A stretch of 64,000 nucleotides of DNA from Psammoneis japonica. Its lineage: Eukaryota. Made by a program: the position numbers and the translations under genes. The DNA is taken from positions 372,001 to 436,000 of the forward strand of contig QPGO01000017.1 in NCBI GenBank assembly GCA_008632985.1, read 5' to 3'. Position 1 is the stretch's first letter; each line of letters starts with the position of its first letter. Below, in pieces: positions 7,823 to 51,364 of this stretch. Below the pieces are notes generated by a model. It did no database searches, was not told the origin of the DNA, and saw nothing but the letters and a program-made list of their open reading frames with translations.

Positions 7823-7888
7823 CGTTACAAAAGTTAAAATTGAACTGCAAAATCGTTTTTAACGTGTGATCCATCTTGAATGATGAAG

Positions 7889-10194: not shown

Positions 10195-10312
10195 CCAAAC
10201 CAGTAAACGAAAAGACATTAAGCTTCAAAACTATTTTTTGAGACAACATTGGCTTTCACGATCTATTTGTCTATAATCGCCACTCTCTTTTGTGCGCATT
10301 GAAACGCCGAAC

Positions 10313-11643: not shown

Positions 11644-14249
11644 GGTTGAGTGTGACAGACAAAGAACGCTGCAGCAGAGCAAAAAACGAGATCAGACTTG
11701 TGGCACTCCAAACCGACGACGACTCCTCGAAAAATGCGTCGGCTGATTTTTTGTGTCGGGAAGAGATCCGCCGATCCGATGACACCTTCGGAAGATTTTG
11801 TGATGGGTCGCGCGTCGACGTCCACTGCGGGCCAGAGTATGCTTCGATGCGAACACCAATGTCAGCGGCGCTATTGCCCTCACATGCGAGAAACTGCACG
11901 CATTCACCCCCCAGCCAAATGCCTAGTAGAGTAGCATGCAGGCATGCAGGAAGGTCGTTCTCAATGACCGCGGTCAAGGCATGGCTGTGATGCAATGAAC
12001 ACCGGTACAGTGCATGCGATGCGTATGCCACTCCCAACTGGGAGGTCTGTAAGTGGTACGGAACAAGACAGAGACGGTGCAGTGCCACCGTGGTGAACGC
12101 ACAGAGGGACCAGGGGTTGTTGCAAGTGTGCCACTCTGTGTTTCTCGCAACACCACCCAATGACCCCTTCTTCATGGAACCACTGGCCCAGCCACGGGAG
12201 ATGGCTGGGGTGCACCAGAGGTGTGGCACACAAAAACCATCTGTTGTCGCCTGCGAGCTGCTTGTGCCATGCATGCAGTCAATGCGCAGCTGACAAAATC
12301 ATGATGAGGTGGTTGGCCCAAGGCACATGGCAGGGCTTTGCGACATCTTGAGATGACATGCTGCTGTGCAGCCCTGCCTGAGAGAATTTTTGTGAAATGA
12401 TGGCAGAATTTTTCACGATTTCACCGCAGTGCAACTCGCCAAATCAACAGTGTCTACACTCTGTCACCAAAGAATTCTCTGTCACTTGCACTGATGCAAC
12501 ATGGGTGGCACACCATGCCAAGGTCCCAGTTGCTCACAAATGATCAGCGCCAATGTGGTTGAACTTCTGAGGGTGCAAAAAGATGAGCTCTGGCTCTGGG
12601 TGGGACCTTGCACTGCTGAGCTGTGACATCGACAGTTTTTTGGATCGTGCCGCATGTTGTGCACGCACATGGCTGCATGTGATGTTCTTCCACAAAACTG
12701 TTTCATGCTCCCTGTTTTGCAAAGCCAAAGGCTTTCTATTTTCAACATTTGTGAGAACAAAAATGGGCTGGGCACATTGTCAAATGTCTGTGGAACACAC
12801 CTGGGCAAACCATTGATGATGTGCTGCAAGTGTGAAGGAGGAGATGCATTTGCAAAATTGCCTCTTTTCTGTTGGCAATCATTTGCATTTTCATGGCTTA
12901 ATGAATTTGCTGCGGAGCTTGCAGGCAGAATTCTGTGGGCCCAATGTCACATGGAGTCCCACCCAGGACTGAAACCCATCAAAAGCCTGTGCCAACATTG
13001 TGAGCTGCTGCATCAAGCCCAAATGTGGCATCCATTGTTGGGTTGTTGTCAGGTTTCAGATGGGAAGAAAGCACCCACTGCTGGTGCCTTGCGTGCATTG
13101 TTCGCTTCTTGGGAATGGTTTTGAGGGCATTGGTGAAATGGCTGCAGCCACTTCAAGCAGATGGAGAGACTTGGAAACAGGCAGCCAATTTTGTCTTGCT
13201 GTCAATGATGGAAAGCAGATCAAGTTAAAACATTTTCCCAATGCTGGGTGGGCATTTTGCAACATTGCTGCACCCATTGATTCAGATGCTGCCCATCAAA
13301 TGGGGAAAGTGTGTGGCTCTGAGCATGTGCCACTGGAGGAAAAGACTGACAATGCAAACAAGTGCGGATGCATCCAATTTCTGCTTGCCTCCAGAGGGAA
13401 GGTGCAAGCCATTGCCAACTTGCTTTTGTCAGAATGGACAGCTTGCACCATCATCAGGGACTCCATTGAAGAAGAAAACATTGCTGCACAGGAGAACATT
13501 GCTGCAGCAACTGCCAACAGCTGGGCTGGCTGGTTGATGCCATCTGTCATGCAACTCAAACAGAAACTGAGTGCATTGTGCATGGAAACAATCAACAACA
13601 TCACCAAAACTCCAGACAACAATGTGAGGGAATTTGCGCACCTTCCTGAAACTGCATCAGCTTCACAAGGATTCATGGCAAGCACACAACAAATTGCACA
13701 ATGTTTTCCCTGGTCCAAAAAAGGAGAGCAGACATTGGTGACTGTGATTTCTCTGTGCTGCTTGTGGCAAATCTGTGAAGTGTTGAAAGACCATGGAGCC
13801 CAAATCTCCAAATGAAATTCACCCATTGGCCAGAAACAGCTTTCTCTCTCCTGAGGCCAGTGGGAGGACAAGATTTCAAGAGCTGCAAACAATTTGAGGG
13901 TGGTCAGGAACAGATTAAAACCTTTGCAAAAACTCACACAGTCTGACAAGAACTGACTCCATGCCAGGTCTGATGACACTCATTTCTCTGAGTTGACTGC
14001 TGTTTGACTTGGCGAAGTGCTGCAAGGACAACAAGGCTGATGTTCACAAAAAAATCATGGAGTGCATGGTGAAACACATTGCTGAAATGGAGGGTGCCTT
14101 TTTGTCATCATCAGAGGTGAGAGCCAAAGCAGAGCAGTTGGTTGGTGAGCTTTTAGATGCCATCTGTGCAACAACTTCTTTGTCAAGAAAGGTGCAGGCA
14201 AACCAAAACAATGCAGATTCTCCCCTTGACTGATGCAGGTGGCCTTGGC

Positions 14250-15230
14250 GCATTGGCACAAAATTGCAAAGGTCCCAAAATGGCAGAGGGTGGCAAATGG
14301 GAAAGGGCACAAAGTCACAAAGGGCACAAAAAACAGCTGAGGGTGAAAAATTGCAAAGGAGGGTGCAAAATGGCCCAGGGCACAAAATGATGGAAAAGGG
14401 AGCAAAATCACAAAGGGCGCCAAATGGCCGAGGGGAGGCCACAAAATCTGTGCAAAATGGCCAAGGTGCAAAATGGGCAAGTGCAGCCACAGAAGCATGC
14501 ATTGGAAAATGCAGCTTCTGGCAAGAGACCTGTGACAGGCTGCATGAGTTCCACACAACTGAGGCTGGCGTGACTGGCCATTGCCAGAGTGATTCACTTT
14601 GCATGGAGGGTCTGCACAAGATGTGTGCAGCACCAAGTGTGGTTGATTCTGCACAAGGACTCAAGCCCTGCATGTCTTGCTGTTGCAAAATGGTCTCACA
14701 ATTTCACACACAACAGAAAATCTCAGCATTTTGTGTTTGAGCACTTGGACCCCATTTTTGCACAGGGCACAAGGTTGACAAATCAAGAAGGGCACAAATT
14801 TGTGAAGGGCACAATGTGTCCAAGGGCACAGAATCACAAAGATTGCAAAATGGTGCACAAAGTTGCAAAAGATGCCAAATGTCAGCTGAGGGTTCAAAAT
14901 CATGAAGGGCACAAAATGGCCAAGGGTGCAAAATCATGAAGGGCACATTGTGGTGCCTGAGGGTGCAAAATCATGAAGGGCACAAAATGGCAAAGGGTGC
15001 AAAATCATGAAAGGCACAAAAGGGCTGAGGGAATGAAATGGAAAAGGTTGCAAAATCAAGAATGGTGCAAAATGGTTGAGGCAGCAAAATTGCAAAGGGC
15101 ACAAAATGGCCAATTGTTCAAAATGGGAAAGGGCACAAAATCACAAAGGGTGCAAAATGGCGGCTGAGGGTGCAAAATCACAAGGGGCCTAAAATGGCCA
15201 AGGGCACAAAATTTCAAAGGGTGCAAAGCT
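14250..15230 (+). repeat. Degenerate ~33-bp minisatellite (GGGCACAAAATGGCCAAGGGTGCAAAATCATGAA-like), interrupted at about 14480-14760
   Basis: Recurring gggcacaaaat / gggtgcaaaat blocks visible directly. Confidence 0.75.
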
Positions 15231-15445
15231 GGCAACAAGTTTGGCAAGTCTGGCAATTTTGGCAAGTTTTTGAGTTTGTCAAGTTTGTTGAGTTTGGCGA
15301 GTTCAGCAAGTTTGGCAAGCATGCTCCTGAGTTTGTCAAGTTTGTCAAGTTTGGTGAGTTTGGTGATCAAGTTTGTCAAGTTTGCAAGTTTGGCAAGTTT
15401 GGCAAGTTTGGTGATTTTAGCAAGTTGGTCGAGTTTGTCAAGTTC

Positions 15446-16010
15446 AGGCATGCTCCAGTCCCAGGTGATGCACAAGACAACAATCAATTTTGAGTGTAAA
15501 TTGTGCATCTCTTGTGCATGGAGCATTTGAGCATAAATTGCTGAAGCCAGTGTGCTTTTGTGGATGTCAAGAGCATGAACATTTAGTTGGCTTTTTGGTT
15601 GGTGTGAAAGTCCTCATGGGACATGCATCACAAACTCCCTCACCAGCAGACTCAACACGACTGATTGCACATCAACACATTGCATGCAGAGATGATTTGT
15701 CTGCAGGCAGAACCCATGCCAGCAAGCATCACAGAAAAATTGTTTGTGTTGACATCAAAATGACAGCAACAATTTTGCTGAAAATCGTCCATTGAGTTGC
15801 GGCTCGATTGTTGCAACGAAACACATGGATTTCAAAAAAACAATGATGTTGCAACACTGACACGAGTCTTGTCAATGTTGCAAAACATTCAAATTTGGGC
15901 TGGTCCACACTTTTGGTGGAGAAAGCTGGGGCGCGCAAGTCAGAGACCATGCAAAAATTGCAAACTTTGTTTTTGTGCACAGTTTGGTTCATGCGCGGTT
16001 GGAACACGTC
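15446..16010 (+). mobile_element. MITE-like unit, copy 1, within the satellite
   Basis: Aligns with 16224-16759. Ends are degenerate inverted repeats (ggcatgctcca ... tggaacacgtc). Confidence 0.6.
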
Positions 16011-16223
16011 TTTGGCAAGTTTAGCGAGTTTGGCGAGTTTGGAAATTTTGTCAAGTTTGGCAAGTTTGTCAAGTTTGGTGAGTTTGTCAAGTTTGGTGAG
16101 TTTGGCGAGTTTGGCAAGTTTGGTGATTTTGATGATTTTGGCAAGTTTGGAGAGTTTGTTGAGTTTGGTGAGTCTGTCATGTTTGGCAAGTTTGCCCCTG
16201 AGTTTGGCGAGTTTGTCAAGTTT

Positions 16224-16759
16224 GGGTGTGTTCCATCCCCAGGTGATGCACAAAATGACAATCAATTTTGAGTGCAAATTGTGCATCTCTCGTGCATGGG
16301 GAGTGTTTGTGTGTAAAGTGCTTGAGCGGATGTGCTTTTGTGGATGTCCAGAGTGTGCACATTCAATTGGTTTTTTTGTTGGTGTGCAAGTCCTCATGGG
16401 ATGTGTGTCACAAACTTCCTCAGCAGACTCAGCACTGATTGTGCAACAGTGCAATGCATGCAAAGATTCATCTGCATGCAGAGCTCATGCCAGACAGCAT
16501 TGCGTGAAAATTGTTTGTGTTGACATCAAAACAACAGCAACAATTTTGCCGAAAATCACCCGCCGTGTTGCGATTCATTGTTTGTTGCAACAAAAAGATG
16601 GGCTGCACAAAAACAATGACATCGCAGCACTGACATTCAAATTTGTGTGAATCTGTGCTTTTGGTGGAGAAAGCCAGGTTGCAAGTCAGAGACAGTGCAA
16701 AAATTGTGCAAATGTCATTTTTGTGCACCACTTGGTTCGCGTGCGGTTGGAACATGTCT
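16224..16759 (+). mobile_element. MITE-like unit, copy 2
   Basis: Direct repeat of 15446-16010; ends ggtgtgttcca ... tggaacatgtc. Confidence 0.6.
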
Positions 16760-17845
16760 TTGGCAAGTTCGGTGAGTTTGGCAAGTTTGGTGAGTTTGGC
16801 AAGCATGGAGAGTTTGTCAAGTTTGTCAAGTTTGGCAATTTTGGCAAGTTTGTCAAGTTTGTCGAGTTTGGCAAGTTTGTTGAGTTTGTCATGTTTTGGC
16901 AAGTTTGGTGAGTTTGTTGAGTTTGGCAAGTTTGGCAAGTGTGACAAGTTTGTTGAGTTTGGCAAGATTGTTGAATTTGCAAGTTTGTCAAGTCAGGAGA
17001 GTTTGTTGAGCTTGGCAAGCTTGGCAAGTTTGTGAAGTTTGGCAAGTTTGTTGAGTTTGGCATGTTTGTCAAGTTTGGCAAATTTGGCAAGTTTGGTGAG
17101 TTTTGCAAGTTTGGCAAGTTTGTGGAGTTTGGCAAGTTTGTTGGGTTTGTTGAGCTTGGCAAGTTTGTTGAGTTTGGCAAGTTTGTCAAGCTTGGCGAGT
17201 TTGGCAAGTTTGTTGAGTTTGGCAAGTTTGGCAAGTTTGGCAAGTTTGTTGAGTTTGTCATGTTTTGGCAAGTCAGGCGAGTTTGTCAAGTTTGGCAAGT
17301 TTGTCAAGTGTGGCAAGTTTGTTGAGTTTGGCAAGATTGTTGAATTTGCAAGTTTGTCAAGTCAGGAGAGTTTGTTGAGCTTGGAGAGCTTGGCAAGTTT
17401 GTGAAGTTTGGCAAGTTTGTCGAGTTTGGCATGTTTGTCAAGTTTGGTGAATTTGGCAAGTTTGGTGAGTTTTGCAAGTTTGGCAAGTTTGTGGAGTTTG
17501 GCAAGTTTGTTGGGTTTGCTGAGCTTGGCAAGTTTGTCAAAAATGGCAAGTTTGTCAAGCTTGGGGAGTTTGGCAAGTTTGATGAGTTTGGCAAGTTTGG
17601 CAAGTTCAGCAAGTTTGTTGAGTTTGGCGACTTTGGCAAGTTTGGCGAGTTTGGCAAGTTTGTCAATTTTGGCGAGTTTGGCAAGTTTGTTGAGTTTGGC
17701 AAGTTTGGAGAGTTTGTTGTGTTTGGTGATTTTGTCAAGTTTGTTGAGTTTGGTGATTTTGGCAAGCTTGTTGAGTTTGTCAAGTTTGGCAAGTTTGTTG
17801 AGTTTGGCAAGTTTGGAGATTTGGAGAGTTTGGTGATTTTGTCAA

Positions 17846-18186
17846 GTGGACAATTTTTGGCAAAGTCATTGCCGTCATTTGAGTGTCAACACAAGCTGTT
17901 TTTTTGCAATGCTGTCTGGCATGTGGTTTGCCTCTGCAGACAAATCTCTGCATGCAATGCACTGTTGTGCAACCAGCATTGAGTCCGCTGAGGAAGTTTG
18001 TGGCACATGTCCTGTGAGGACTTGCATGCTGACAACAAGGCCATTTGAATGTTCGTGCTCCAAACACCCACAAAAGCACATCCTCTGAAGCACTTCACAT
18101 GCAAACACTTCACACACAAGAGATGCACAATTTGCGCTCAAAGTTGATTGTCATTTTGTGATTCACCTGTGGGGTCGGAACACGTC
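17846..18186 (-). mobile_element. MITE-like unit, copy 3 (inverted, truncated)
   Basis: Reverse complement of the left ~340 bp of copies 1 and 2; ends in ggaacacgtc. Confidence 0.6.
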
Positions 18187-21100
18187 TGCAGTGAGTTTGG
18201 CAAGTTTGGCAAGTTTGCTCCAGAGTTTGTTGAGTTTGTCAAGTTTGGCAAGTGATTTTGGTGAGTTTGGCAAGTTTGGCAACTTTGGCAACTTTGGCAA
18301 CTTTGGCAACTTTTTCAAGTTTGGCAAGTTTGGCAAGTTTGGCGAGTTTGTCAAGTTTGTTGAGTTTGGCAAGTTTGGCAAGTTTGGCAAGTTTGGTGAT
18401 TTTGGCAAGTTTGGCAAGTTTGGTGATTTTGGTGATTTTGGCGAGTTTGGCAAGTTTGGCGAGTTTGCCGAGTTTGGTGAGTTTGCCGAGTTTGGCAAGT
18501 TTTTCAAGTTTGGCAAGTTTGGCGAGTTTGGCAAGTTTGGCGAGTTTGGCAAGTTTGTCAAGTTTGTCGAGTTTGGCAAATTTGGCGAGTTTGGCATGTT
18601 TGGCAAGTTTGGAGAGTTTGGCAAGTTTGGCGATTTTTGCGAGTTTGGCAAGTTTGGCAAGTTTGGTGTTTTTGGTGAGTTTGGCGAGTTTGGCAAGTTT
18701 GGCAAGTTTTTCAAGTTTGGCAAGTTTGGCAAGTTTGGCGAGTTTGGCAAATTTTGCGAGTTTGGCAAATTTGGTGATTTTGGTGAGTTTGGGGAGTTTG
18801 GCAAGTTTGGCAAGTTTGGCGGTTTTGGCAAGTTTGGCAAGTTTGGCAAGTTTGGTGATTTTGGCGAGTTTGGCAAGTTTGGTGATTTTGGTGATTTTGG
18901 CAAGTTTGGCAAGTTTGGTGATTTTTGCGAGTTTGGCGAGTTTGCCGAATTTGGCAAGTTTGGCGAGTTTGGCAAGTTTGGCAAGTTTTTCAAGTTTGGC
19001 AAGTTTGGTGAGTTTGGCAAGTTTGGCAAATTTTTCAAGTTTGGCAAGTTTGGCGAGTTTGGCAAGTTTGTCGAGTTTGGCAAATTTGTCAAGTTTGGCA
19101 TGTTTGGCAAGTTTGGCAAGTTTGGTGTTTTTGGCAAGTTTGGCGAGTTTGGCAAGTTTGGCAAGTTCAGCGAGTTTGGTGATTTTGGTGAGTTTGGCAA
19201 GTTTGGCAAGTTTGGCAAGTTTGGCGAGTTTGCCGAATTTGGCAAGTTTGGCGAGTTTGCCGAATTTGGCAAGTTTGGCAAGTTTTTCAAGTTTGGCAAG
19301 TTTGGAGAGTTTGTCAAGTTTGTTGAGTTTGGCAAGTTCGGCGAACAAGTTTTCAAGTTTGGCAAGTTTGGCGAGTTTGGCAAGTTTGGCGAGTTTGGCA
19401 AGTTTGGCAAGTTTGGTGATTTTGGCGAGTTTGGCAAGTTTGGCAAGTTTGGCGAGTTTGGTGACTTTGGCAAGTTTGGCGAGTTTGCCGAGTTTGGTGA
19501 GTTTGCCGAGTTTGGCAAGTTTTTCAAGTTTGTCGAGTTTGGCAAGTTTGGCAAATTTTTCAAGTTTGGCAAGTTTGGCGAGTTTGGCAAGTTTGTCGAG
19601 TTTGGCAAATTTTTCGAGTTTGGCATGTTTGTCGAGTTTGGCAAGTTTGGCAAGTTTGGCGAGTTTGGTGATTTTGGCAAGTTTGGCGAGTTTGCCAAGT
19701 TTGGTGAGTTTGCTGAGTTTGGCAAGTTTTTCAAGTTTGGCAAGTTTGGCGAGTTTGGCAAGTTTGGCAAGTTTGGCAAGTTTGGTGAGTTTGGCAAGTT
19801 TGGCAAGTTTGGTGAGTTTGGTGAGTTTGGCAAGTTTGTTGAGTTTGGCAAATTTGGCGAGTTTGGCATGTTTGGCAAGTTTGGCAAGTTTGGTGTTTTT
19901 GGCGAGTTTGGCAAGTTTGGCGAGTTCAGCAAGTTTGGTGAGTTTGGCGAGTTTGGCAAGTTTGGCGAGTTTGCCAAATTTGGCAAGTTTGGCAAGTTTT
20001 TCAAGTTTGGCGAGTTTGTCGAGTTTGTCAAGTTTGTCGAGTTTGGCGAGCTTGGCAAGTTTGGCAGTTTTGGCAAGTTTGGCAAGTTTGGTGATTTTGG
20101 CGAGTTTGGCAACTTTGGCGAGTTTGCCGAGTTTGGCAAGTTTGGCAAGTTTTGCAAGTTTTTCAAGTTTGGCAAGTTTGGTGAGTTTGTCAAGTTTGTT
20201 GAGTTTGTCAAGTTTGGCGAGTTTGGCAAGTTTGGCAAGTTTGGTGATTTTGGCGAGTTTGGGGAGTTTGGCAAGTTTGGCAAATTGGCGAGTTTGGCAA
20301 GTTTGGCAAGTTTTTCAAGTTTGGCAATTTGGCGAGTTTGGCAAGTTTGTTGAGTTTGTCAAGTTTGGAGAGATTGTTGAGTTTAGCAAGTTTGTCAAGT
20401 TTGGCAATTTTGGCAAGTTTGGCAAGTTTGTCAAGTTTGGTGAGTTTGTTGAGTTTGGCAATTTGGGCAATTTTGGCAAGTTTGTCAAGCTTGGTGAGTT
20501 TGTTGAGTTTGGCAAGTTTGGCGAGTCTGCAAGTTTGTCAAGTTTGTTGAGTTTGGTTGGCAAGTTTGGCAAGTTTGCTCCTGAGTTTGTCAACTTTGTT
20601 GAGTTTGGCAAGTTTGTCAAGTTTGGAGAGTTTGTGGAGTTTGGCAAGTTTGGCAAGTTTGTTGACCGAGTTTGGCAAGTTTGGCAAGTTTGTTGACTGA
20701 GTTTGGCAATTTTGGTGAGTTTGTCGATTTTGGCAAGTTTGGCAAGTTTGGCAAGTTTGGTTGGTTTTGCAAGTTTGGAGAGTTTGGCAAGTTTGTCAAT
20801 CAAGTTTGGCAAGTTTGGCAATTTTGTCGAGTTTGTCAAGTTTGGCAAATTTGGCAAGTTTGGTGAGTTTGGCAAGTTTGGTGAGTCACAGACCCAAACA
20901 CTTCTGCCGTCATTGCTTGCAACTCTGGCTTGCCCAGGTGCCACCAAATGTGCGCAGCTCTTTTGCCCAGCACTTTTTGGCACAAGGTGGCTGACTTTGG
21001 AATTGCCAGGTTCTCTTGGAGCTGTGCTGCAGACACACCAAGTCCATCCTGTGGCGCGAGCAGTGAACAACATGGCTGCAAAGCTGTGTCAAAGCACCAG

Positions 21101-21839
21101 CAGCCAGATGTCTCTCAACAAGCTCTGGAGACAAGCCTCCCAGCAAGGAACAACACTTGCCACAAGCACCCAAGGAGGAGCAAGAAGTTGCTGTCAAAAC
21201 CACAACATTTTCTGTTTGGCAGATCTGTGGCAAGCAGCACTTGCCACAGCAACCAAGCTTGTGCCACACTTTGAGGCATTCTTGACAAGCAAAGCAGGAA
21301 AAAAGAATGGCTGTCAATGGCGCCGCCCAATGCTCATGGTGGAAATGACAGCCATGATGCCGAAAAAAAAACGCTGTGGACAACTTTTGTGTGACTGGCC
21401 TGTGAGCCAGAAGCAGCTCTAAAAGTGTGATTGCTTGTGCAGCATTGTCTGCAAAGAATGGCTTCCACTCTCATTGAGAATCTCAACAAGAGCTGCAAAT
21501 CTCAATTTTGCATCTGTGATCAACGCTTCCACAGGTGTGGTGGCTGGTGGGGGGCAGCAATTGACCTGGCTTTTTTTGTTGCTGATCAATTTTTAAATGA
21601 TCGCACAAATTTGACTCTTTGTTTGCTGCTGATCTGCCATGGCCATCATCATCAGTTGGTTTGAAAGACAGCTGCATGGGTGGTGCACACTGCTTGTGAC
21701 AATTTCTTTGCTTTGTTGTCACAATCTTGTGGAAAATGGACAGCTGCACAATGACAACCTTTGAGGCAGAGAAGAGAAGAGAACTGTCACACACACCTGC
21801 AAGCCACAACTGTGCCATGGCAACCCACCTCTGCTCTCA

Positions 21840-22470
21840 AATCAACTGTTGCTGGGGCAATGCCAAGGGAGCAAGAGCATTGACATGAAGCAGCACAAGT
21901 GCATCATGTGCAACAGTGGTGTTTGTTTGTTTGTTTGTTGGTGTCTTCTTAAAAAATTCTTGTGTGTGCACTCCATTAGATGGACAGTGTGTTTTGTGGC
22001 TTTTTTGTGACTCAGCCACATTGACAAAGCAGCCATCACTGGGACAATGTCACGTGGTTAAGAGCACTGACACAAGGCACTGCAAAGATGTTGAGCATGA
22101 TGGGGCAGCACGTGTTTGCTGGCATCTTTCGAAGTTCTCACATTTGCACTCCTCCACTTGCTGAATGGGGAGTGTGTTCTGTGGTTTGTTTGCAACTTGG
22201 CTGCATTGACAAAGCAACTGTTGCTGGGCTGACATCAAATGGTTGAGACCATTGATGCAAAGCAATGCCAAGAATGTGACAGCAAGCATGACAGCAGTGC
22301 TTGTTTGTTGGCATCTTCTGACATTCTCATGTTGGCACCCCACCCACATGCCCACATGGACAGCACATTTTGTGGTTTCTCTCTGTGACTTGGCTGTGCA
22401 CCCACAAATCAACCATTGCCAGGACAATGTCTTGCATGATCAACAGCATTGATGCAAGGCAATTTAAGCA
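21840..22470 (+). repeat. Degenerate ~185-bp tandem repeat (3-4 units)
   Basis: Recurring cattgacaaagca..ctggg and gcattgatgcaa blocks at roughly 185-bp spacing. Confidence 0.55.
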
Positions 22471-25360: not shown

Positions 25361-25809
25361 GAGTTGCACATGAACAGCTTTGTGGCCACACCAAGACAGC
25401 CAGCTTGTTCCTGGACACCACCTGCTTGAGACTCGTTCCAGCCCCAGATGGGAGCTTGCAATGCTGACATGTGACACAATTGTTTTTTGTTGTCCGATGC
25501 ATGTTTTGAGCACACATTTCTGCATGTGATCTTCCAAAAAATTGTTCCAGACTTGCTGTTCTGCAAAACCCCAGATGTTTTGTTTGACAAAATTGTGGGA
25601 GCCTCATTTTCTGTTGGCAATCATTGATGCATTCATCACCTCACAATTTTGCCACGGAGCTGGCACGCAAAATTCCATGGCTGGGCCCAGTGTCACACAG
25701 ATTTCCACCTGTGTCTGGAACACGTCTTGACCACCTCCTCCACAACTGCCTTCACAGCCTGAGGCAGCCTCCTTCCAATGAGCTCCAGCCATGACAAGAG
25801 TGCAAAAGC

Positions 25810-25811
<2 letters not shown>

Positions 25812-25853
<42 letters not shown>

Positions 25854-25866
25854 GGGGGGGGGGGGG
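25812..25866 (+). repeat. (TG)n microsatellite followed by a poly-G run
   Basis: Directly visible; about 40 bp upstream of the Ngaro left end. Confidence 0.95.
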
Positions 25867-27389
25867 TGCACATTGGCTGCAAAAACTGGCTGCAAAAGCA
25901 GTCTTTTTGTTGGTCCTTGGAGTCAGAGCAGTGAGTGCATGTGGCAGGCAAAATTCAGACGGAAGGATGACCAGATGGATTTGTTGATTTTTTGGCTGCA
26001 CACATGACAATTGGCAAATTTGGCTTCGCACGCTGATGGTGAACAGTCATTTCATCATTTCTCAATGACTTTGGAAGTCATTGACAATGCTGTGACAATT
26101 GTTGTCAGGCATCGCAAGCTCTGTTGAGTTGTTTTGGTCTTTCAAATCTTTCAAAGACAACAACTCATGCACCATGTTGCTGGAAAACAGCTGGAAGAAC
26201 TTCTTCTTGAGCTGACTGCAAGCAACAATGCACGCTGCATGTTGGGCTCTCTGCAAAAGATTTCACACAAGCCTCCTGCAGAATCAAGTCATTGAGCACA
26301 TCTCAAAGGAGGCACAGTTTTCCTTGATGCATGTCAAGCAACAGGGAACCCCATTTTGCTCCATGGCCATGCTGTCATTGGAGGCACAAGACTCCAACTG
26401 GGAATGTTCCATGTGATGTCAGTTGGAATGGGCTCACGTGCATGCCCTGCACAAGTGGACCCAGACAATTTCTTCAAGATGATGGAGCTTGACACCCCAA
26501 CCTGGAACAACATGTCAAGAACCTGGAATCAGCCAATGAAGCAGACAAGATTGCCCCTCCGACTTGATTGGAGTCAGCCGCCAAAGCCACTTTCCATCCA
26601 ATTGCCCCTCTCCCTCCATTCACAGTGAGCCAATTCACAGATGAAGATGACTGGCCCACATCCATCCTGCCAATTGCCACCCTGTCAGCTGTCAATGTCT
26701 GCAATCAAGCTTGTGACAGTGACAAAAACTGTCCCAGCACCACCAAGGACCTTTGTTGGCTTGCCGCTTTCCTTTGGGCCATTGCCCACGACAAGATCCC
26801 AGCCTTCACCCAAAGTGCTGTCACCAATGCTGCAGCTCTGCAATGCTTCAAAGAACTTCACATGTCTTCCATTGCATCAAATGACATTGCAACAAACCCC
26901 CCAGGTGTCACCTCTGATGCAATGCTGCAAGGTGTTGCCTCAAGCATCGCTGAGCTCACAACACACCTGCAATCCAAACGATCATCTGGAGAACAAGACA
27001 AACAACTTTGAGAAGTTGGCAGCCCACTCCTGACAAATGATTCCATTGGAATTGTCTTAAGATGGCAACACTGCACCTGCCAGCCTGTCCAACCTTGCGT
27101 CCTCATTCTTCAAACAACCAACATCTGCTGCAGCCAGAAACTGGGCACAACACACCCTCAAGAACAAACTTGGATGCCTCGTGGTCACCAAGCAAGGAAT
27201 TGCCACAGCAACACCAGCTAGAGAATTCCTTTGGGACAGAGATGACCTCCCAAACAACTTCAGCACCTTCTTTGCAGCACACCCACCAACAACTCCCCAA
27301 GCAGCAATGACGACAAGACAGCATCAGCCTCTGTGATGCGTTGTCTTCACCTGCAAGTCAAAGAAGGAAAAGGGTTGTCAGACAAAGAC

Positions 27390-29885
27390 TTACGGACTAG
27401 CAATGTTGGGACAATCTAACGGATGTCTAGGACAGATGATAATCGTGCACTAGATGAGAAAGAAAGTGAGCAAAGGAGAGATCATCGGATCTCTCCATGC
27501 AGTCTATGCTAGTCTGTCCGACACAAGGGAGTGTACTCCCCATCTCGGATGTCTGTCACCCTCCCCTGATGAGCAATGCAATGCTCAACAAGAAAGAAAG
27601 AGACGATCCGAATAAAAAAAGAGGACCAGAATAGCAGAACAAAGAAGAGCACCAAAAGAAATGGCCAAGACTTGGTCCGTAAACACGATAACAATCAACG
27701 ACAACATCCCATCAAGGGACGAGCATGTCGGGAATAAACATCCATCCCGCGCTCAACGCATCGGTCTTCGACAAAAAATATCAAAGGTAGTTCCCAATAA
27801 ATCTTTTGGATAAATTGAGTCGTGCACCAGAGAAGAATTTTGTCAATCCATAAATAATCGACCGCAACGAGACATTCTGGCGAGCCATCCTGTCGCCAAA
27901 AATCATCGGAAGAGATGGGGCCAAAAATTGGAAATCCACCATGGACAGTGATACGTTGAAAATGAAGCAATAGCATCCCACCTGATAAACCAATACTTCT
28001 ACCACACTTTGTGTCACCCTTGAAAAACATATTGGAGAAACAAAATACATCATAAAGTCGCTCAACGTCGGAAGAACAGTGACGTATCAGAGGTGAGCAT
28101 CGCACGTCGTTCAAAAAGTGATCGTCAAGTAAGGTATCTTGGCCGAAGATTGAGTTCTCAATGGCCTGATATGTTTCCTCTGCGCTATAGGAATCCCTCC
28201 CCTGATCAAAAAATGTAGGATCATCATCGGCAATGGTGGATAGGTCCGGAGTACCGTGAAAAGTACAAATAGACGCGACAACGGTCCTGACAACAGAGGA
28301 AAGAGATGAAATAGCGAGAGGTAACGAGACTCGGTGGCCCTCTTTCAGGGTTACCCCGCTTTCATTGGTCTTGATGGGATAAGAGAAGGAATGGCAGCAT
28401 CGTATATCCGAAATTAACGACGGCCGAACCAAAAATCCGAATTCGAATCAACTTGACAACCAACGAAGCACTGGCGGCGTCCATGAGTAACAGACGACGG
28501 CGGCGCACAGGTGGTAAGCAACTCGGGTGTAACCTTGATAATAGAGGATAGTCCATAACTGGGGTGAATATGGCCATCTTTACATGGAACAATAGAATGG
28601 CCAGAAACAAAAAACTTCGGGGTCTCGAGTAGGCAGGAGCGGACTTCGGCAGGAAGTACCACCGATTCGGTAGGAATTGCAAGGGATCCCGCATCAATGT
28701 CTGTAGATTGCTTACCCGTAGATTCCATAACAGACACAGTAGACTTGATAGTCAAGGAATTAGCATCCATAGGATCCATCCGAGCATCCATAGCGAGTGC
28801 ATCTTCAACACGAGATACAACAGCAGTGTTGTAGCTACTGGCAGCAGAGGCGGGATCTGGGCACAACTTGGACTCAGCACATGCATGAGAACTTGAAATG
28901 CTCTCCAATCCATTAGTCATGGCTTGCCCACACTCGTTTGGACCAGGTGAATGAGTTGCTAAGGCCTCAGCAAAGTCTTCAGGAGTGGGACCTGCAGTGG
29001 CAACCGGCGGGGATGCAGAACTTGAAGTGGACGGTGGGACTGGATGCGGATCATCTGAAATGTCATCCCAGCAATCGCAATGCTGGAAACCAGGACAGAA
29101 ATGGAAACGTAAAGTGCCAACACACACCTTTGTGGTGCTGTCATTCTCTGTGATCGCTTTGACCATTGCGTTCTGAAGAGCACTGAGGTTCAGACGAACC
29201 GGGGAGCCTTGAGGGGTGGCCACAAAGAGAGGGGCCTTTTCAATGATCGGTCCGATTCGTGTGAGATCTTCAGTCAGGGCAGCTTCAGGGATGACAAGAT
29301 TCTGAATGATCTCGCGATGGAGAACAGTGACAGCATCGCACTTGAGGCCTTGAGGAGCAAATCCATCCAAAAGATCTTCAGGAGCAGGGATCGCGTCCGA
29401 ACAAAGGGTGTTCAGGAAAACATGGGCATCGGGTGAGCGATTGTGTGGGCTGAATTCAACCCGCATTGTCTTGATCTTGGTCAAATCGACGGCGTTTTGA
29501 TTTTTGTTCACCATGGTTGCGCAGGAAAAAAATCAAATTCCTGTGCAGAGCTCTGGTGTGTGTTCCACGGTGGTCGTTTGATCACAAATCGAGAGGTGAA
29601 AAAATGGCTGTGACAATGATGACGATTTCAACGAAGAAAAGGTCGCCAAATCACACAACAGGCGCTGCAGTGGAGGAGCACAGAGGAAGAGGAACAGCGC
29701 ACTGCTGCTCACAACCTTGCAGACTGGCAGCATCAGGACAACCCAACGGACATCTAGGACAGATGATGATCGTGTGCTAGATGAGAAAGAAAGTGAGCAA
29801 AGGAGAGATCATCGGATCTCTCCATGCTGTCTGTGCTAGTCTGTCCGACACAAGGGAGTGTGCTCCCCATCTCGGATGTCTGTCA
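27390..29885 (-). mobile_element. Non-autonomous Copia-like LTR retrotransposon (2.5 kb)
   Basis: 169-bp LTRs at 27390-27558 and 29717-29885; 5-bp TSD AAGAC (27385-27389, 29886-29890); PPT AGGGGAGGG (minus strand, 27559-27567). PBS GGTTGTGAGC follows the 5' LTR and is one TA->TG change from the copia/Ty5-type half-tRNAiMet PBS GGTTATGAGC. No RT or integrase motifs recognised. Confidence 0.88.
28414..29514 (-). pseudogene. Internal ORF of the LTR element (probable truncated gag-like region)
   Basis: 366-aa ORF starting about 200 bp after the PBS on the element's sense strand. Identity inferred from position only. Confidence 0.5.
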
Positions 29886-31399
29886 AAGACATCAAGAAGA
29901 TCACAGAGCAAGAGCTAAAATCACCTGCCACAGCCGATGCTCCATTCTTCCAAATCCAAAACTTCATGAGCCCACATGCCACTGTCATGGGTAAAAACTC
30001 CCCAGCAGCCCAAAACCTTGTGTCACCAGGATTTGCCACATCAAGAAACACTGCAACTCACATGACAACCAAGGGGCCAAAGACCCAAATGTGCTCAACT
30101 CCAGTTGCAAGACTGCACCAATGCAACACTCTGCAGTGATGTGGATGACTCGCTCATCTCTTTTGCCAACTTCCAGCAAGAGACAGTCCCAGCCAGAACA
30201 CTTCACTTGATCCACCCCAGTCTTCTTAGCCACAAACTCCAATGATGACAAGCCAGGAACCAAATGCAAAAAGGCAAAGACAAAGCCAACCAAGACAAAC
30301 TGGTTTGCAATGACAACTTGCTTCCCATTTGGAAACTCAAACAAGGCAAAGACTGTGTGGCAAAGTCTTCCACCCAAACATCAAGACCCTCCCTTTGTTC
30401 AAAGGTGTCCAACTCTGTGGCAAATGCCACGCAAAAGATTGCTGCGCCACCATCTGCTGCAAGTGCAGCCACTCTGAACTCCGTGGAAAAGCCATTGAAG
30501 ATGTGACCAAGTGGGTCTCCTTTTGCCGTGAATGCTCTCCCTCTGCCAAAGATGATGACCAAAAACAGGACGCATGGTCATTGCTTGGCAGTGGCGACCC
30601 ATCCAATGGCAAATGCTTTTGTCCACCACCCAAGCCTCCTCATGACACACCAATGCCAAGCAACACATGCATGCAAGCCAGGCTGTCAAACAAGAAAACA
30701 AGAAATGCCCGACAGAGACAAGAGGATCAAGTTCCATCCTGCACTTCCCCACCCATGTCAGATTGCAAGGATCAAGTTCCCTCCTGACCAATGACCTCCA
30801 CCTGCTCACAACAGACAACAACCCCTTCAGCCCCAGACACAATGCTGTGAACCACCCAACAAGAAAGCCTGGACAGCACAGAGAAACGAGCATTTGAGCA
30901 ATGAGAGATGATTCAGGACATGCTCAGCAAGCATCACACTGACCTGATGGGAGCCATTGAGCAACAGGATCAAGACCCTCAAGACCCAACAGCAACAATC
31001 CCAAGCACTCCAAGAGATGGACACATCCTCCATTGTTTCACAACAAACAAACCTGAGCCACCCAAATCCAACAGTCTCCCTCCTGGGATCACCTGGCGGA
31101 GCCCGCCAAAATGCCTTTGGGCTCAGCAGATCCCAAGGTCCTTGAATCCAAACAGCACTCTCCTTGGAAGTGTCTGATGGAACCTGCTGAACAGTCATCT
31201 TCCCAGGCTGACCCAGCAGCTCCCTCTCAGGCACCAAAATCCAAAAGTTCTTCCTCCAAGGTCAACCCAACAGAGCCTCACATGGAGTTGCATCTCAGCA
31301 CCAACTCATGCACCACCTTGACTGCTCCAGCTCCTCAGCCAAGTTGCTCAAAAGCTCTGTCCAACAAAGCCCTGCTCCAGCTGACAAGCCACATCACTT

Positions 31400-33450
31400 C
31401 ACAATCTCCTCAACTGCCATCAAAACTGATCTTCTCTTTTGAGCTTGCAAAAGAAGCAGCCAAGCAAAACTGGATGATCGTTTCTCAACGTTTCAACCTC
31501 AATCTTGAGAGAGCACTTCAAGCACAATGAACATCCATCCCAGGCTGCGGCTCAGAATTCCGTTTGATTGATGTGCTGCAACCCCTCCTGCATTGTCATC
31601 CATCATGGGACAAAGTTGAACAAACATTGTCCCATGGAGCTGGGCATCCTCTTGAACCAACAGAGGAGACAGCAGCATGCCAAGACAACATGTGAGAAGA
31701 GGTCAATCAAGGGAATCACAAGTCAGCAGTGCGACATGCATCAATCTTGAGAGAGAAACTCCATGACAAAGTTTGCAAAGGCAGGGAACTGCCTTTGCCC
31801 AAAGACAAGATCTGCCATCTTCCCAAAGCCCTGGCGGCCCCACTCAAAGTTGCAGAACAAGACACAATCAATGAACAAGGGGAAGCAGTCCCTTCCAAAT
31901 GTGCCACTCATGAACAATCTTGCAGATTCCATTCAGGGACTTCAGTGAATTCTAGAGTCATCTCAGAAGAACTCACACACTCCCTGTGTGCACAGAAACA
32001 TGCTTTGCTGCCTGATCCATTGCATTGTTTCAATTCAGCTGCGTCACCACAAACCCGAGTTCCAATCCAGAAGATTGATTGTGAGTCAGCCTGCTGTCGT
32101 GGCCACTCAAACAGCAACACCGCAGTTCAGTCGATTGTCACTTGTGATGATCCAGCCCTTCTGGCCCTCTGTTTCACCTTTGGAGGCAAGCCAAACCCAA
32201 ACTTGTGGGGCAACATTTCTGAATCTGTTTGCAACCCGTGTCCAACAACATCCTCCAATGCAAGTCCTGGGACCCATCCACTTTATGAAACCCAGCTCAA
32301 GACCACCTCCCCCTTCCTCACTGCAAAAACAACAATGCGCCATTTGCCCCAGCTCTTGAACTCACAGTTGAGATTCCCCCAACAACAATGGCATCATTGA
32401 TGTCTGCATGGATGACACAGTCACAGTCACACCCAACCTGAATGACAATGTCAAACAAGGAGAAGCGGCAGTGCTGTCAGGGATTCATCCTGTTGGCTGA
32501 CCGGTTCACCCCAAAGAAGACCTCACACAAGACAATCTCACCTGTTTGAAGAAACTCTGTGCCAAAGGATGACTTGAAGAATGGCAGCACTTGGTTGGTT
32601 GGTTGGACACCTGTTGCATGAGCGTCTGTTTGCCAGAACATAAATTTGTTGCTTGGTCCAACCAACTCCGATCCCTCATCAAGAAAGAAGGGTGAGCTTT
32701 CAAAGAAATTGAGCAACTTGTTGGTAGACTCAACCATCTGGGCTGCATCGTGCCACATGCTTGCCATGTTCTAAGTCACCTTTGTCAACTTATGATGCAC
32801 TCCAAAAACAGGAGATGGTGTGAGTTACGACCATCAGAGATCAAAGATGCAAGACTCTGGACAAGATTTCTCAAACAAGCTTGAAATGGTGTCAGCCCAA
32901 ACCTCATCACTTGCCACAAGCCAACACACATCTGTTGATCCAATGCATCAGAACATGGCATTGGTGGCTGCAACATTGCAGCTGGACAGGCTTTCTGATT
33001 TGAACTCCCACAACACCTGGCACATGGTCTTGCAATCAATGCGAAGGAGTTCTTGTCCAGTGTCACATGTCCTTTGATTGATTCCATCAAAGGCAACCTG
33101 CCACCGCTCTCATGTGTCCTCTTCCAAGGTGACAGTGCCACAGCCTCCAGCTGGCTGCAGAAATCCAACTTCAATGAAGAAACTGATCCAGAGCAAATGG
33201 AGATTGCACCCGTCAATTTGCGTTCATCATGCTTGACACTGAGAGTCAATCCTTCAGCCAATGGTTCCCTGGAAAGAAGAACATCATCAGTGATTGCTTG
33301 TCTTGAGACAGAAACTCATCCAATGACACACTCACCCATTTGCTTTGCCACAGTGCACCCAAGCAGGTTTCTCAAAGCTTTCACATCTTGCCACTGCCCA
33401 ACAAAATCATTTCTTGGTTGACCTCCTTGATGCCAAAGACACTTGTCAAC
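31400..33450 (+). pseudogene. Ngaro reverse transcriptase / RNase H remnant
   Basis: AEQDTINEQGE..THEQS, KIDCESACCRGH (K-x-D-x-x-x-AYRR), TFGGKPNP, DVCMDD (YxDD; 32405-32416), INAKEFL, GDSATASSWLQKSNF, QWFPGKKNIISDCLS. Multiple stops and frameshifts. Confidence 0.88.
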
Positions 33451-34520
33451 AAGCAAATGCCAAAGAAACCAACAAGAAGCAAAACACAGTTTTCACCTGC
33501 TGGGAGAAGTTTCTTGGCAAGATTGGACTCAGCGACAACCTGTTCATGGATGAACTCACCATCACCCAACCACACTGCACCCTTGGAGCCTTTGCAGCAG
33601 CCATCAAGAGGGATGTTTCTCAGCAGAACAATTTGACACATGGGTGGCAGGGACCATTGGAGCTGCTGTGGACAATGTGGCATTGACCTTTGGGTCTTGC
33701 AACAGGAAGGACCCAAGGTTGGATGAGGATTGATGGACCTTGCACCTTTTGCTCTGCCAGTGTTGAGGCTGCAAAAACCACAATGGACAACAGAAGCAAC
33801 AGAAAGCAATCACCACCTCACTCCTCTGTGCTTTGTCCCAAAATCAAAAGATGTGCAAAGATGTCACCACAAGCCAACTGACCATCAGAGCTTGGTTCTT
33901 TGCCATGTGCTCTTGCGAGTGCTCCAAGACCAAAGGTGACTGACACAAACCAAACTGCCAACCCTCAAGAATCTCCACTTGACTTCTTCCAAGACAGTGC
34001 CAAACTGCAGCACAAAGACCCAGACTTTGCCTTGGCTGACACCATCTCCATCACCTTCGAATGCCAAAAGAATGACAAGTGATGTGACACCATCACAATG
34101 TTTTGCACCGGGGACAACCTGCTCTGTCCAGTCCATGCATGGGCAGCAGCAGCCCATCATGCACTGTTCCACCCAGGCTCTGTCTCAGACTCCCCAGCAT
34201 GCACCATTGGCAAAAACAGAAAACTGCACTCTCTCTCCTCTTTAATCATCCTGAGATGCAAGCAGCAGCAGTGGCAGCAACAGCAATCGGTGAGAGGACA
34301 AGTTGGGGTGCAAAGCTCATGAAATCAGAACACACTCTGTTTGCTTGGGAGCAGCTGTGGCAATGCATTTTGTGTGCACACCTGTCCACTTGATCATGTT
34401 GATTGGCAGATGGTCTTCAGACGCCTTTCCCCAACACATCCAAGAACAAGTTCAACAATTTGGTGTCAACGTCTCTTCACAAGTGATCAAGCACCAACAC
34501 TTCTTTGCAGTTCCAGACTC
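33450..34520 (+). pseudogene. Ngaro tyrosine recombinase remnant
   Basis: FFAMCSCECS (FFAMRSCEY), ITFECQKND, LCPVHAWA, THSVCLGAAVAM (HSxR), IMLIGRWSSDAFPQHIQEQV (catalytic Tyr position now CAC, 34435-34437). Confidence 0.9.
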
Positions 34521-35243
34521 TGGCCCAGAAGATCCCAGAATCCACAATCATTGTGAACTCCAAGCCACTTGCGCAAACAATGGTCGACGTCAAGCTCAGT
34601 TGATGGCACAACTGCCATTGTTTTGCTCTCTTCACTTGAGTGTCACAGAGCTCAGCAACCAGATTGAAATTTTGCAGGCGAGTCATGATGGCACATCAAC
34701 TGCAGCACTGTTGGGTCCCTGGGGGGTTGTTCACTTCAGGAATGAAAATTTCCTGGGCCAAACCATCAGGCTTTGTTGCCAGACCATTCATGCTCAAGAT
34801 TGGAGTCTGCAACCTGTGGTGAGGACTTGGTTTGATGGGTCATCATTTGTTGGTCCTTGGAGTCAGAGCAGCAGTGAGTGCGTGTGGCATGCAAAATTTG
34901 GATGGAAGGATGACCAGATGAATTCATTGATTCTTTTGGCTGCACACACGACATTTGGTGAATTCAACTTCACGTGTCAATGGTCAACAGTCATTTTTCA
35001 ACAGCTTTGGAAGTTGTTGGCAATGCTGGGATGATCGCCATTGTGTGTCACAAGCTTTGTCAAGTTGTCTTGGTTTTTAAAATTCCCCAAACCCACCACC
35101 CTTCATGAGCTGTGGCACTGCCAGGTCCCTGGGGGATTGTTCACATTGGGAATGAAAATTTCCCAGGCCAAACTGTCAGGTTTTAATGTCAGACTGTTCA
35201 CACTCAAGATTGGAGTCCGCAGCCTGTGGCAAGGACTTGGCTC

Positions 35244-37030
35244 AAACAAACTGCATGGACCAGCACAAGTGTGAAAATTTTGTTCTCAATGACAGCACAT
35301 TTGCATCAAATTGTGGTCAACTTTGACCTGACAAAAGACTCATTTGGGTCAACTCAAATCATTCAAAAATTCACAAGCAGATGTGATCAAATTTTTTCAA
35401 AATGGCCACTTACAAAATGGTGCAGACAATGATCACCCAGGCCAACTGGCTTGGCTGCAAAGCAAGAAAAGATCTTTGCCACCACACAAAATGACACAAA
35501 TTGCAGGATGTGTCCAAGCACAACACAAACAATGACAAAGTTGCAGGAAAACACCATCAACGGCCCGGGAATCCAGACACACCAACAAAGAAAAACTGTG
35601 GGAAAGGTGAGAGATCAGAAGTGCCACGCAGGAGCAGGCTGCTTGGCTTGGACCAAACCACAACAAACCAGTGCACTTGCACTGCAACTTTCTGTCTTGA
35701 AACTCAGACACACATTGACAAAAGCAGCCAAGGATGATTGCAGCTGCTGAGACAATGCTGCAAACATGCAAGTCAAAACAAAAGTGTTGTGTGGAAGTGA
35801 GCTCCTTCCAGCAAACCACAACAAGCTGATGCTTGCACTGCAGCAACTTTCTTTCTGGAAACTGAGCAAGACAAAGTGAAAGAAGCAGGGCCAAGGAAAA
35901 AACATTGTGCCAAGCTCAGCACTTGCCAAACAACACAGTGCCAGCTTGCCATTTCTTTGCTCTCTGCCAACCAGAATTGCTGCCCCCACTGACAAGACAA
36001 GCACAATGACAAAGGACCAGTGGACATTGGCTTCAAGAAACAGAGAGACTGTGGGCAACAAAATGACAAACAAGAAAAGACAGCATGTGACAAACACTGC
36101 ACAATGGAAAGCAACATCATTGGAGCTGACAACAGAACAATTGTTGTCAGATCACACACAACAAGCAGCGACCATCAACAAGAATGACTTGGATGTGCAG
36201 AACCAAGGCCAAACATCTCAATGAATGAGCACTCATGGGCACTTGTCAAGAGCCAATGTCACTTGACAAGAGCAATTTGATGAAGGCAGCCAGACTCTGG
36301 AGCTGCTGTTTCTTGCTTTGCGCAAGGGAGTGGCTGTTGATGGTGTTTCATTTGCTGTTGTTGCAACACAATGAAGTGCAAGAATCAGCTGCAGAACCAA
36401 GCATTTTTGGCATCCTTTCCTGCTTTGCACAAGGGAACAATTTTGTCAAAAAGCCTTCATCAACTTGACAAGAACACTGGGTGGATCACATTTTTCCAAA
36501 ACCCCAACACAAAACTTGTGCCTGTTTTGTTGGTTGTGTTGTCATTGCATGTTCTTGTCCTTTCTGTCATTTGCAGTGCACTTTTTTGCCATTTTTTTTT
36601 CACTTGTTCAACATCAGCCACGCATGCTGCCACACAGAGCCAGCCAGCAATTTGATGAGAGAGCACAAGTCAGCCCCAACACAACTTGCAGAAGCAACAA
36701 CAATGTCCACTGCTGCCAGCCACTGTCCCCAGCAAGAATGTCACTGTGGTGTGCCTTGCTTTTCACTGGAAAGAGTGCAGCTCTTTTGCCAGCTTCGCAG
36801 TTGCTCCACAGACATGTTTTCCTGTGCTGCACTTGTGCTGCAAAATGCAAGGTTCTTGACCTCCATTGATGTTCACCCTCCATTTGAAGAGGATCATCCA
36901 GGGACTGTCTTCCCCCCTGTCCCCAATTGGCCAAACAAAAACGTGAAGGGGGTCATGATGTGTTTTGCGTGTGTCGGGGTGTCTCCACACATCCTTGCTT
37001 TTTGCCCACATGCAGCCGTCTGCCAGTCAG
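35244..37030. repeat. Unclassified TpA-depleted repeat relic
   Basis: Same composition as the adjacent element; no recognised domain. Normal composition resumes at about 37035. Confidence 0.6.
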
Positions 37031-37248
37031 CCGGTAGGCCTCTGGTGATGACGTATCTACTGTATCTCCGACGCACGCACGCCATAGGCTCTTGAACTTG
37101 AGCCTATGCGCACGCCGCTTCATTTTATTTTTGTGTGTGTGCAAAAATATGTGTTGAGTGTTGAACCCTCGTTTGATGAACCCTCGCAGTCTATCTACGA
37201 TCTACCTGAGTGAATGAACTTTGTTCTCATTTTTGAGTGTAGTTGAAA

Positions 37249-51302: not shown

Positions 51303-51364
51303 AAGTAGTCTGCATTCTGACTACAATAGAATAATTTTCATTTTTATAGTGCATTGCTGCTATA

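Follow-up and report, generated by a model that had tools for sequence, protein, structure and literature searches.

The closest described counterpart of the pattern analysed here comes from the chlorarachniophyte alga Bigelowiella natans. The main text of a preprint (Mettrop et al., bioRxiv 10.64898/2026.01.13.699255) reports that, in mutation-accumulation lines of this alga, 231 of the 302 nuclear single-nucleotide mutations fell in integrated giant-virus and virophage regions, that 230 of these 231 were A to G or T to C, all on TpA and at about 1000 times the background, and that 1-kb windows depleted in TpA and enriched in CpA and TpG are clustered in the genome; the main target is described there as single-copy, and the authors propose, without proof, that an ADAT2-like protein deaminates adenine in DNA. 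For diatoms, passages of PMC9998398 describe repeats that bear cytosine methylation, and a RID-related gene, DNMT4, whose function is given as unknown; H3K9/H3K27 methylation of diatom repeats is reported as well. Here we analyse 64,000 nucleotides from Psammoneis japonica (GenBank assembly GCA_008632985.1, contig QPGO01000017.1, positions 372,001 to 436,000 of the forward strand), the whole of which we call the window and which we read as nuclear DNA of this diatom. It contains five gene-free blocks of 0.8–15 kb each in which the dinucleotide TA is nearly absent (observed/expected ratio, o/e, 0.05) and TG and CA are in excess (1.8). We consider it highly probable that these blocks record a real, DNA-level hypermutation of TpA to TpG or CpA that acted in place and is of the B. 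natans kind, beside a decay of CpG.

The composition of the blocks differs sharply from that of their neighbours. Pooled over 31,624 bp, the blocks hold 100 TA (o/e 0.05), 349 CG (0.19), 3485 TG (1.84) and 3671 CA (1.79), against 895 TA (0.56), 1409 CG (1.02) and ratios of 1.14 for TG and 1.13 for CA in 23,702 bp of pooled normal DNA. In bins of 1 kb, TA o/e is 0.00–0.13 at 12–27, 30–37, 41–48 and 58–62 kb and in the first 0.75 kb, where CG is mostly below 0.45 (two bins made up of a 9-bp satellite reach 0.59 and 0.87) and TG and CA stand at about 1.5–2.4; genic bins have TA at 0.44–0.73 and CG at 0.84–1.22. Counted per 1-kb window, the number of TAs is 24–58 in the 84 normal windows and 0–8 in the 103 block windows, ranges that do not overlap. 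An earlier reading of this stretch, made by a model from the letters alone and referred to below as the sequence-only reading, had described its repeat domains as almost devoid of TA, low in CG and saturated with TG and CA next to normal neighbours, and both the bins and the pooled counts bear this out.

The transitions between the two kinds of DNA are abrupt, with block edges resolved to less than 50 bp (first TA at 37035, last TAs at 40733 and 57265). The TA at 37035 ends a gap of 1624 bp, and beyond it a TA occurs every 10–20 bases; the longest TA-free gap outside the satellite is 2226 bp, while TAs in normal DNA are spaced by 26 bp on average and by 237 bp at most. GC content is 0.480 in the blocks and 0.483 in normal DNA. 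By arithmetic on the pooled counts, pyrimidine-purine steps number 7605/31624 = 0.2405 per base in the blocks and 5660/23702 = 0.2388 in normal DNA, and TG plus CA are observed in the blocks at 0.226 per bp, where the normal TG plus CA together with the lost TA and the lost CG would give 0.225. Since the total of these steps is unchanged and the gain of TG and CA equals the loss of TA and CG, transitions alone explain the composition. In our view the most fitting description of this DNA is that it is old, free of genes and presumably silenced, and that a young element has inserted there. The blocks lie as follows (ratios are o/e; depths here and below are from a public sequencing run, X1):

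1–756, no strand: TA-free block truncated by the window's left end (1–672: TA 0, CG 0.26, TG 1.83, CA 1.82; TAs from 756)
11950–16758, no strand: left part of a TA-free block, with 17/34/51-bp satellites at 14.9–15.2 kb (12455–16750: TA 13, 0.04, CG 0.20; edge at 11950–12454: TA 0.15, CG 0.51)
16759–20881, no strand: 9-bp satellite (TTTGGCAAG) of about 450 copies within the block (tandem-repeat search; TA-free gap 16314–20384)
20882–27389, no strand: right part of the block, reaching the insertion of a long terminal repeat (LTR) element (20890–27057: TA 12, 0.03, CG 0.11, TG 1.89, CA 1.84; depth mostly 77–190 against a single-copy depth of 64)
29886–37034, no strand: TA-free block that ends 200 bp before a MatE-like gene (29900–37034: TA 14, 0.03, CG 0.16, TG 1.96, CA 1.64)
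40734–48270, no strand: TA-free block (41383–48270: TA 29, 0.06, CG 0.13)
57266–62761, no strand: TA-free block with a tandem duplication, 58160–59116 / 59116–60051 (57915–62000: TA 24, 0.09, CG 0.26)
62762–63500, no strand: TA-poor, CG-normal fringe with an open reading frame (ORF) at 62687–63439 (minus strand, 250 aa; no Pfam match) (TA 0.21, CG 0.86)

The direction of the change can be read from the young element. A direct repeat of 169 bp (27390–27558 / 29717–29885) flanks 2.1 kb with minus-strand ORFs, and together with a GGGGAGGG tract these features have what appears to be the layout of an LTR element on the minus strand:

27390–27558, minus: 3' LTR, the less mutated copy, with 9 TA (169-bp ungapped repeat with 29717–29885, 18 mismatches; depth in its bin about 4000)
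27559–27568, minus: putative polypurine-like tract, read from the letters as GGGGAGGG on the minus strand and immediately upstream of the 3' LTR
27695–29532, minus: two ORFs inside the element, of 372 and 250 aa (27390–29110: TA 73, 0.64, CG 0.85)
29111–29754, no strand: part of the element in which all TA is lost and CG kept (644 bp: TA 0, CG 29, 0.72)
29707–29716, minus: word GGTTGTGAGC, resembling a primer-binding site (PBS) and adjoining the 5' LTR (single match in the window)
29717–29885, minus: 5' LTR, the more mutated copy, with 3 TA, all in CTAG (from the comparison of the LTR pair)

An element of this type inserts with two identical LTRs. In the present one 18 of the 169 columns have come to differ, and 15 of them belong to events among TA, CG, TG and CA: at six sites the left copy has TA where the right copy has TG or CA, the reverse occurs at none, four further sites are double mismatches with CA opposite TG, and one is CG opposite CA. 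The six single differences that the sequence-only reading had listed for this pair are each exactly confirmed. A double mismatch of CA against TG is the outcome when a single ancestral TA (or CG) is converted independently in two copies, and such doubles make up 31 of the 57 adjacent double mismatches in six paralogue pairs within the blocks (8/13, 10/14, 8/10, 2/9, 0/7 and 3/4), against 0 of 2 in a tandem repeat of normal DNA that served as control. The duplicates 58160–59116 and 59116–60051, for instance, differ by 60 mismatches, among them 46 transitions and 8 of these doubles. A third comparison is with the other genomic copies of the element, for which 40 of 600 differences were examined. 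At thirteen of these, a transition separates TA in the window copy from CA or TG elsewhere; the reverse is seen at two single sites (29566 and 29744; at 29566 the other compared copies have TA and the window copy CA), and the adjacent pair 29767/29768 has TG in the window copy and CA elsewhere. Eleven are CG against CA or TG, in either direction, and nine lie outside pyrimidine-purine steps. At one site (27440/29767-8) the left LTR has TA, the right LTR TG and most other copies CA, and the coexistence of all three makes TA the ancestral state. To judge from the LTR pair, the paralogue doubles and the other element copies, the TA-free state thus arose in place, by conversion of TA to TG or CA, as the sequence-only reading had proposed.

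The same comparisons bear on the suspicion that the deficit reflects a composition intrinsic to this DNA, selection that disfavours TA, or an artefact of sequencing, polishing or base calling at modified bases. Intrinsic composition is ruled out by the one-way LTR differences, by the paralogue doubles and by CA or TG in the other element copies, and the first two of these require real, independent mutations, which tells against an artefact as well. In run X1, 93% of the sampled words of 29.0–39.0 kb are present, and its contigs, with a single-copy depth of about 64, match the TA-free stretches with 0–5 differences per piece of 0.6–6.3 kb. This agreement excludes an assembly or consensus error, although X1 is possibly the assembly's own sample, with library type unrecorded, a circumstance that the artefact explanation can claim for itself, as it can the possibility that 29.1–29.7 kb of the element is TA-poor in most copies. 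Block edges bear no relation to read or contig structure, and a misreading at the level of sequencing chemistry is unlikely because of the evidence for mutation in place; runs X2 and X3 cover little or none of the TA-free DNA. Taken as a whole, we regard composition or artefact as very improbable. Where X1 contigs differ from the assembly at single-copy depth (21373, 26703, 35218, 35412, 35626), five of the seven rows fall at CG, CA, TG or TA steps, and these differences may be allelic variants from the TpA and CpG processes.

Loss of TA and loss of CG come apart at the fringes of the blocks, where TA is gone and most of the CG kept: at 29111–29754 TA is 0 and CG o/e 0.72, at 62000–62761 the ratios are 0.08 and 0.68, and at 40734–41382 TA is 0 and CG 0.46, with CG falling to 0.11–0.26 in block interiors. 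TA loss is therefore faster than CpG decay and separable from it, and we read the blocks as the product of two processes, a fast TpA hypermutation and a slower decay of CpG. The latter is also seen in many differences of CG against TG or CA between duplicates and between element copies, and it depends on context, GCGC surviving best (0.50) and TCGA worst (0.086). It fits, by analogy, the cytosine methylation of diatom repeats. Decay driven by 5-methylcytosine would account for the CG to TG/CA half of the pattern (CG o/e 0.19) but is unable to remove TA and is slower here than TA loss; the earlier argument that it cannot suffice alone is upheld, the loss of TA being independent of that of CG. 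Over the whole fringe at 62000–63500, TA o/e is 0.08–0.21 and CG is almost normal at 0.68–0.86, and this may be recently targeted sequence.

Which TAs survive depends strongly on their neighbours. Of the 100 TAs left in the blocks, 35 stand in TTAA. Relative to normal DNA, survival is 0.85 for TTAA, 0.18 for CTAA/TTAG, 0.08 for GTAA/TTAC, 0.07 for CTAG, 0.01 for GTAC, 0.005 for ATAC/GTAT and 0 of 53 for ATAT, values that are approximate, as the "ancestral" NTAN frequencies come from mostly coding DNA; the ranking is robust. An additive per-strand model, in which the rate depends on the base that follows the TA (A 0.16, C 2.05, G 1.27, T 2.59), fits all 16 contexts and improves on a single rate with a likelihood-ratio statistic of 150 for 3 degrees of freedom. 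The products agree, NTGA/TCAN being the least enriched (1.17–1.39) and GTGC/GCAC enriched up to 2.55. We also considered a rule set by the base two positions before, and rejected it: it predicts NTGA products, yet those are the least enriched. In the comparison of element copies, sites open to one strand only gave the predicted product in 6 of 6 cases (NTAA to NCAA four times, TTAC to TTGC twice). These patterns show that the target is T-A-B (B being C, G or T) on either strand, with TTAA spared; a change of T-A-B to T-G-B, which is the same as V-T-A to V-C-A, leaves TTAA immune.

As TpA is self-complementary, A to G and T to C are indistinguishable in sequence, so that the assertion of the sequence-only reading that the process acts on adenines goes further than the data. 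We tentatively favour adenine deamination at T-A-B as the chemistry, with a good part of the probability left to routes other than this one and the next. A route through thymine, in which an oxygenase of the TET/JBP type would form 5-hydroxymethyl- or 5-formyl-uracil at V-T-A in silent chromatin and mispairing or misrepair would then yield T to C, strikes us as unlikely, but all the data fit V-T-A to V-C-A as well as they fit T-A-B to T-G-B. In dinoflagellates 5-hydroxymethyluracil is enriched at TpA, and base J occurs at T-A steps of trypanosome telomere repeats; a literature search on 5-hydroxymethyluracil at TpA found no paper. On the other side stands the preference of the B. natans authors, again without proof, for adenine deamination. 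The context rule bears equally on error-prone repair synthesis of the Pol eta type (WA to WG) in heterochromatin, which had been put forward as a candidate. Pol eta produces A to G after T or A, and AA and TT are slightly enriched in the blocks (1.27 and 1.24, against 1.16 and 1.13 in normal DNA); moreover the target requires a T before the A and a base other than A after it. Because AA and TT are not depleted, this candidate is disfavoured, and we hold it to be most improbable.

Strand symmetry speaks to a further alternative, in which transposon transcripts would be edited by ADAR- or ADAT-like enzymes and the edited copies then reverse transcribed and inserted. Such editing has in its favour that ADAR-type enzymes prefer a U before the edited A, according to the main text of the B. 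natans preprint (10.64898/2026.01.13.699255). In the blocks, however, TG and CA are equally raised (1.84 and 1.79) and randomly interleaved (z between -1.1 and +0.65 in the runs test), the change extends to satellites and non-coding flanks, one edge lies within the element, and the divergence of the LTRs after insertion contradicts the idea. Of the explanations weighed here we give this one the least credence, and scarcely any at all.

The sequence-only reading had further called the hypermutation repeat-restricted, a description that the data do not support. Most of the TA-free DNA is at only 1–3 times the single-copy depth (at least 85% likeness, X1), with the exception of 24.3–25.7 kb at 5–26 times, and it contains satellites and old paralogues at 74–80% identity. 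The LTR element, with a repeat number of 20–60 (depth 1360–4000 against 64), keeps a TA o/e of 0.64 across 1.7 kb in its window copy, its other copies being mutated, and in a 197-bp tandem repeat at 63.6–64.0 kb TA is normal at 15 per 250 bp, which shows that a repeat can escape TA loss. These observations weigh against a homology-dependent process, resembling repeat-induced point mutation (RIP) with another target, that would recognise duplicated segments, perhaps in the sexual cycle, and mutate only the duplicated part; so does the single-copy main target in B. natans, as far as the preprint's main text describes it. Several features would suit such a process: edges sharp to less than 50 bp, one of them within the LTR element at about 29110; element ends at about twice the depth of the middle (3550–4000 against 1360–1800); other element copies that are depleted in TA relative to the window copy; and the RID-related DNMT4 genes that diatoms are described as having. 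We think it an unlikely account, though one to keep in mind, and targeting by silent chromatin seems more likely than targeting by homology. The exception at 24335–25668 is a moderately repeated family within a TA-free block (two bins, depths 343 and 1661 against 64) that shares 74–77% identity with 12601–12963.

The mechanism that we propose is as follows. A fast, TpA-specific A:T to G:C hypermutation would turn TA into TG or CA within the blocks, affecting the two strands alike and one site independently of the next, and stopping within tens of bases at a block edge. A slower decay of CpG to TpG or CpA, as expected from cytosine methylation of diatom repeats, would run beside it, and the two together would push all pyrimidine-purine steps to TG or CA. 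Guidance would come from silent chromatin and not from repetition as such, and the chemistry may be enzymatic deamination of adenine in DNA, to an inosine that is read as G.

Some observations sit less comfortably with this proposal and weigh against it, and the approximate survival values above belong among them. The runs test found no strand-coordinated runs of TG or CA in the blocks, as a processive single-strand deaminase might leave, although the test is weak at saturation and has low power with about half of the block TG and CA being ancestral. One LTR site, ATAA to ATGA, violates the three-base rule. At 29.1–29.7 kb few of the examined rows have TA in other element copies, and this part may have been TA-poor already in the family's master copy. 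A Pfam scan of 150 block ORFs of at least 90 aa found no transposon or viral domain, so that a foreign origin of the blocks is not demonstrated; its two weak matches, Drf_FH1 within the satellite (E 7.7e-4) and Amidohydro_3 (E 0.0064), are irrelevant. Finally, the independence of X1 from the assembly is unproven.

The identity of the LTR element is less specific than had been suggested. The sequence-only reading named it Copia, a label that finds no support: neither the 150 block ORFs nor the element ORFs contain a reverse transcriptase, integrase or protease domain, and the internal part measures only about 2.1 kb. The element ORFs have no Pfam match, and a homology search with the 372-aa ORF gave 4134 candidates, none at E ≤ 0.001. 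The PBS-like word GGTTGTGAGC is not significant by itself, since 29 of 100 shuffles had at least one match too, and its supposed unmutated form, GGTTATGAGC, occurs nowhere in the window.

Several tandem repeats accompany the blocks. The 9-bp satellite forms an array of 4.1 kb with 72% matches, with smaller arrays of the TTTGGCAAG unit upstream at 15236–15444 and 16011–16225; variants that bear CG (TTTGGCGAG) are common, and the missing TA is uninformative by itself in this satellite. Three of its units, searched against metagenomes, matched 23 loci, all with ordinary TA (o/e 0.31–0.91), and for that reason we take them to be unrelated. Nested tandem repeats of 17/34/51/85 bp, with a unit of about AAGGGCACAAAATGGCA, lie inside a TA-free block at 14886–15227, and a perfect (TG)20 microsatellite lies in one at 25812–25851. 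The 197-bp repeat (63587–64000; 2.2 copies, 85% matches) runs off the window end.

The genes between the blocks are ordinary and almost without introns. Those at 1601–11700 and 37243–57065 are long unbroken ORFs of up to 1127 aa, and the spacing from block to ORF is about 200–250 bp (one block ends at 37034, for example, and the next ORF starts from 37243). ORFs outside the blocks encode a carboxylesterase, a class-3 lipase, a MatE-like transporter, DUF493, a TLC-domain protein, a WD40 protein, gamma-tubulin and an acyl-CoA dehydrogenase N-terminal domain. The best match of the gamma-tubulin is at 85%, and among named sequences its closest relatives come from diatoms, such as Chaetoceros neogracile (80% identity), followed by Cyclotella, Cyclostephanos and Discostella. 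A search for tRNA genes as possible boundary elements returned none.

Among known systems, fungal RIP resembles the hypermutation described here as an in-place, irreversible transition hypermutation of non-genic or repeated DNA, with sharp edges and alongside cytosine methylation. It differs in making CpA into TpA and lowering GC, whereas here TA is lost instead of gained and GC stays the same (0.480 against 0.483); the opposite direction of RIP had been pointed out by the sequence-only reading, correctly. ADAR and ADAT editing and the engineered TadA editors share the change of A to G and a T or U before the target base, but their substrates are RNA or the single-stranded DNA of an R-loop. 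As to the following base, ADAR favours G, and here the order is T≥C>G>>A.

With B. natans the likeness is closest: judging by the main text of the preprint, both cases involve A:T to G:C changes at TpA that give TpG or CpA, confined to silent regions and leaving a clustered footprint of TpA depletion, and by analogy we infer that the two hypermutations are of the same kind. The view that no described system carries this signature is thus overtaken by the 2026 preprint with its de novo TpA to TpG/CpA hypermutation (10.64898/2026.01.13.699255), which was the sole match in our literature search; no report from diatoms or other stramenopiles was found. There are differences nonetheless. The host here is a diatom (Stramenopiles) and not a chlorarachniophyte (Rhizaria); the footprint here is saturated, with a TA o/e of 0.05 over tens of kb against the 0.45 given for the virus region there; and the targets here are repeats in decay, satellites and an LTR element, among which no viral gene can be recognised. 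Here CpG decay is coupled to the loss of TA, and a T-A-B rule with TTAA immunity can be formulated, while the main text of the preprint contains none of the terms "CpG", "TTAA" or "trinucleotide". De novo mutations were measured there, whereas here a footprint is read from sequence.

One earlier report, a 2026 preprint on a rhizarian alga, had described TA-specific A:T to G:C hypermutation; the diatom footprint adds a second lineage, ecologically dominant and genetically tractable, so that the responsible gene can be sought by phylogenetic profiling. Because the same signature occurs in an unrelated alga, the enzyme behind it may be widespread. It is conceivable, though on balance we doubt it, that an old enzyme system guided by chromatin is common to diatoms and chlorarachniophytes, works on double-stranded genomic DNA, irreversibly changes T-A-B to T-G-B where that DNA is silenced or invading, and forms a second, mutational layer of defence beside cytosine methylation across the Stramenopiles, Alveolata and Rhizaria (SAR); if so, it would be a natural A-to-G (or T-to-C) DNA editor, and should the enzyme turn out to deaminate adenine in DNA, no natural deaminase of that sort would have been seen in genome defence before it. 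Any candidate enzyme is constrained by the T-A-B rule with TTAA immune, by action on both strands site by site, and by a stop within tens of bases at a domain edge, and the fringes show that TpA hypermutation can outrun CpG decay. The diatom case is real and striking; in view of the preprint it is not categorically new, but it brings the B. natans kind a new member and, with it, mechanistic constraints.

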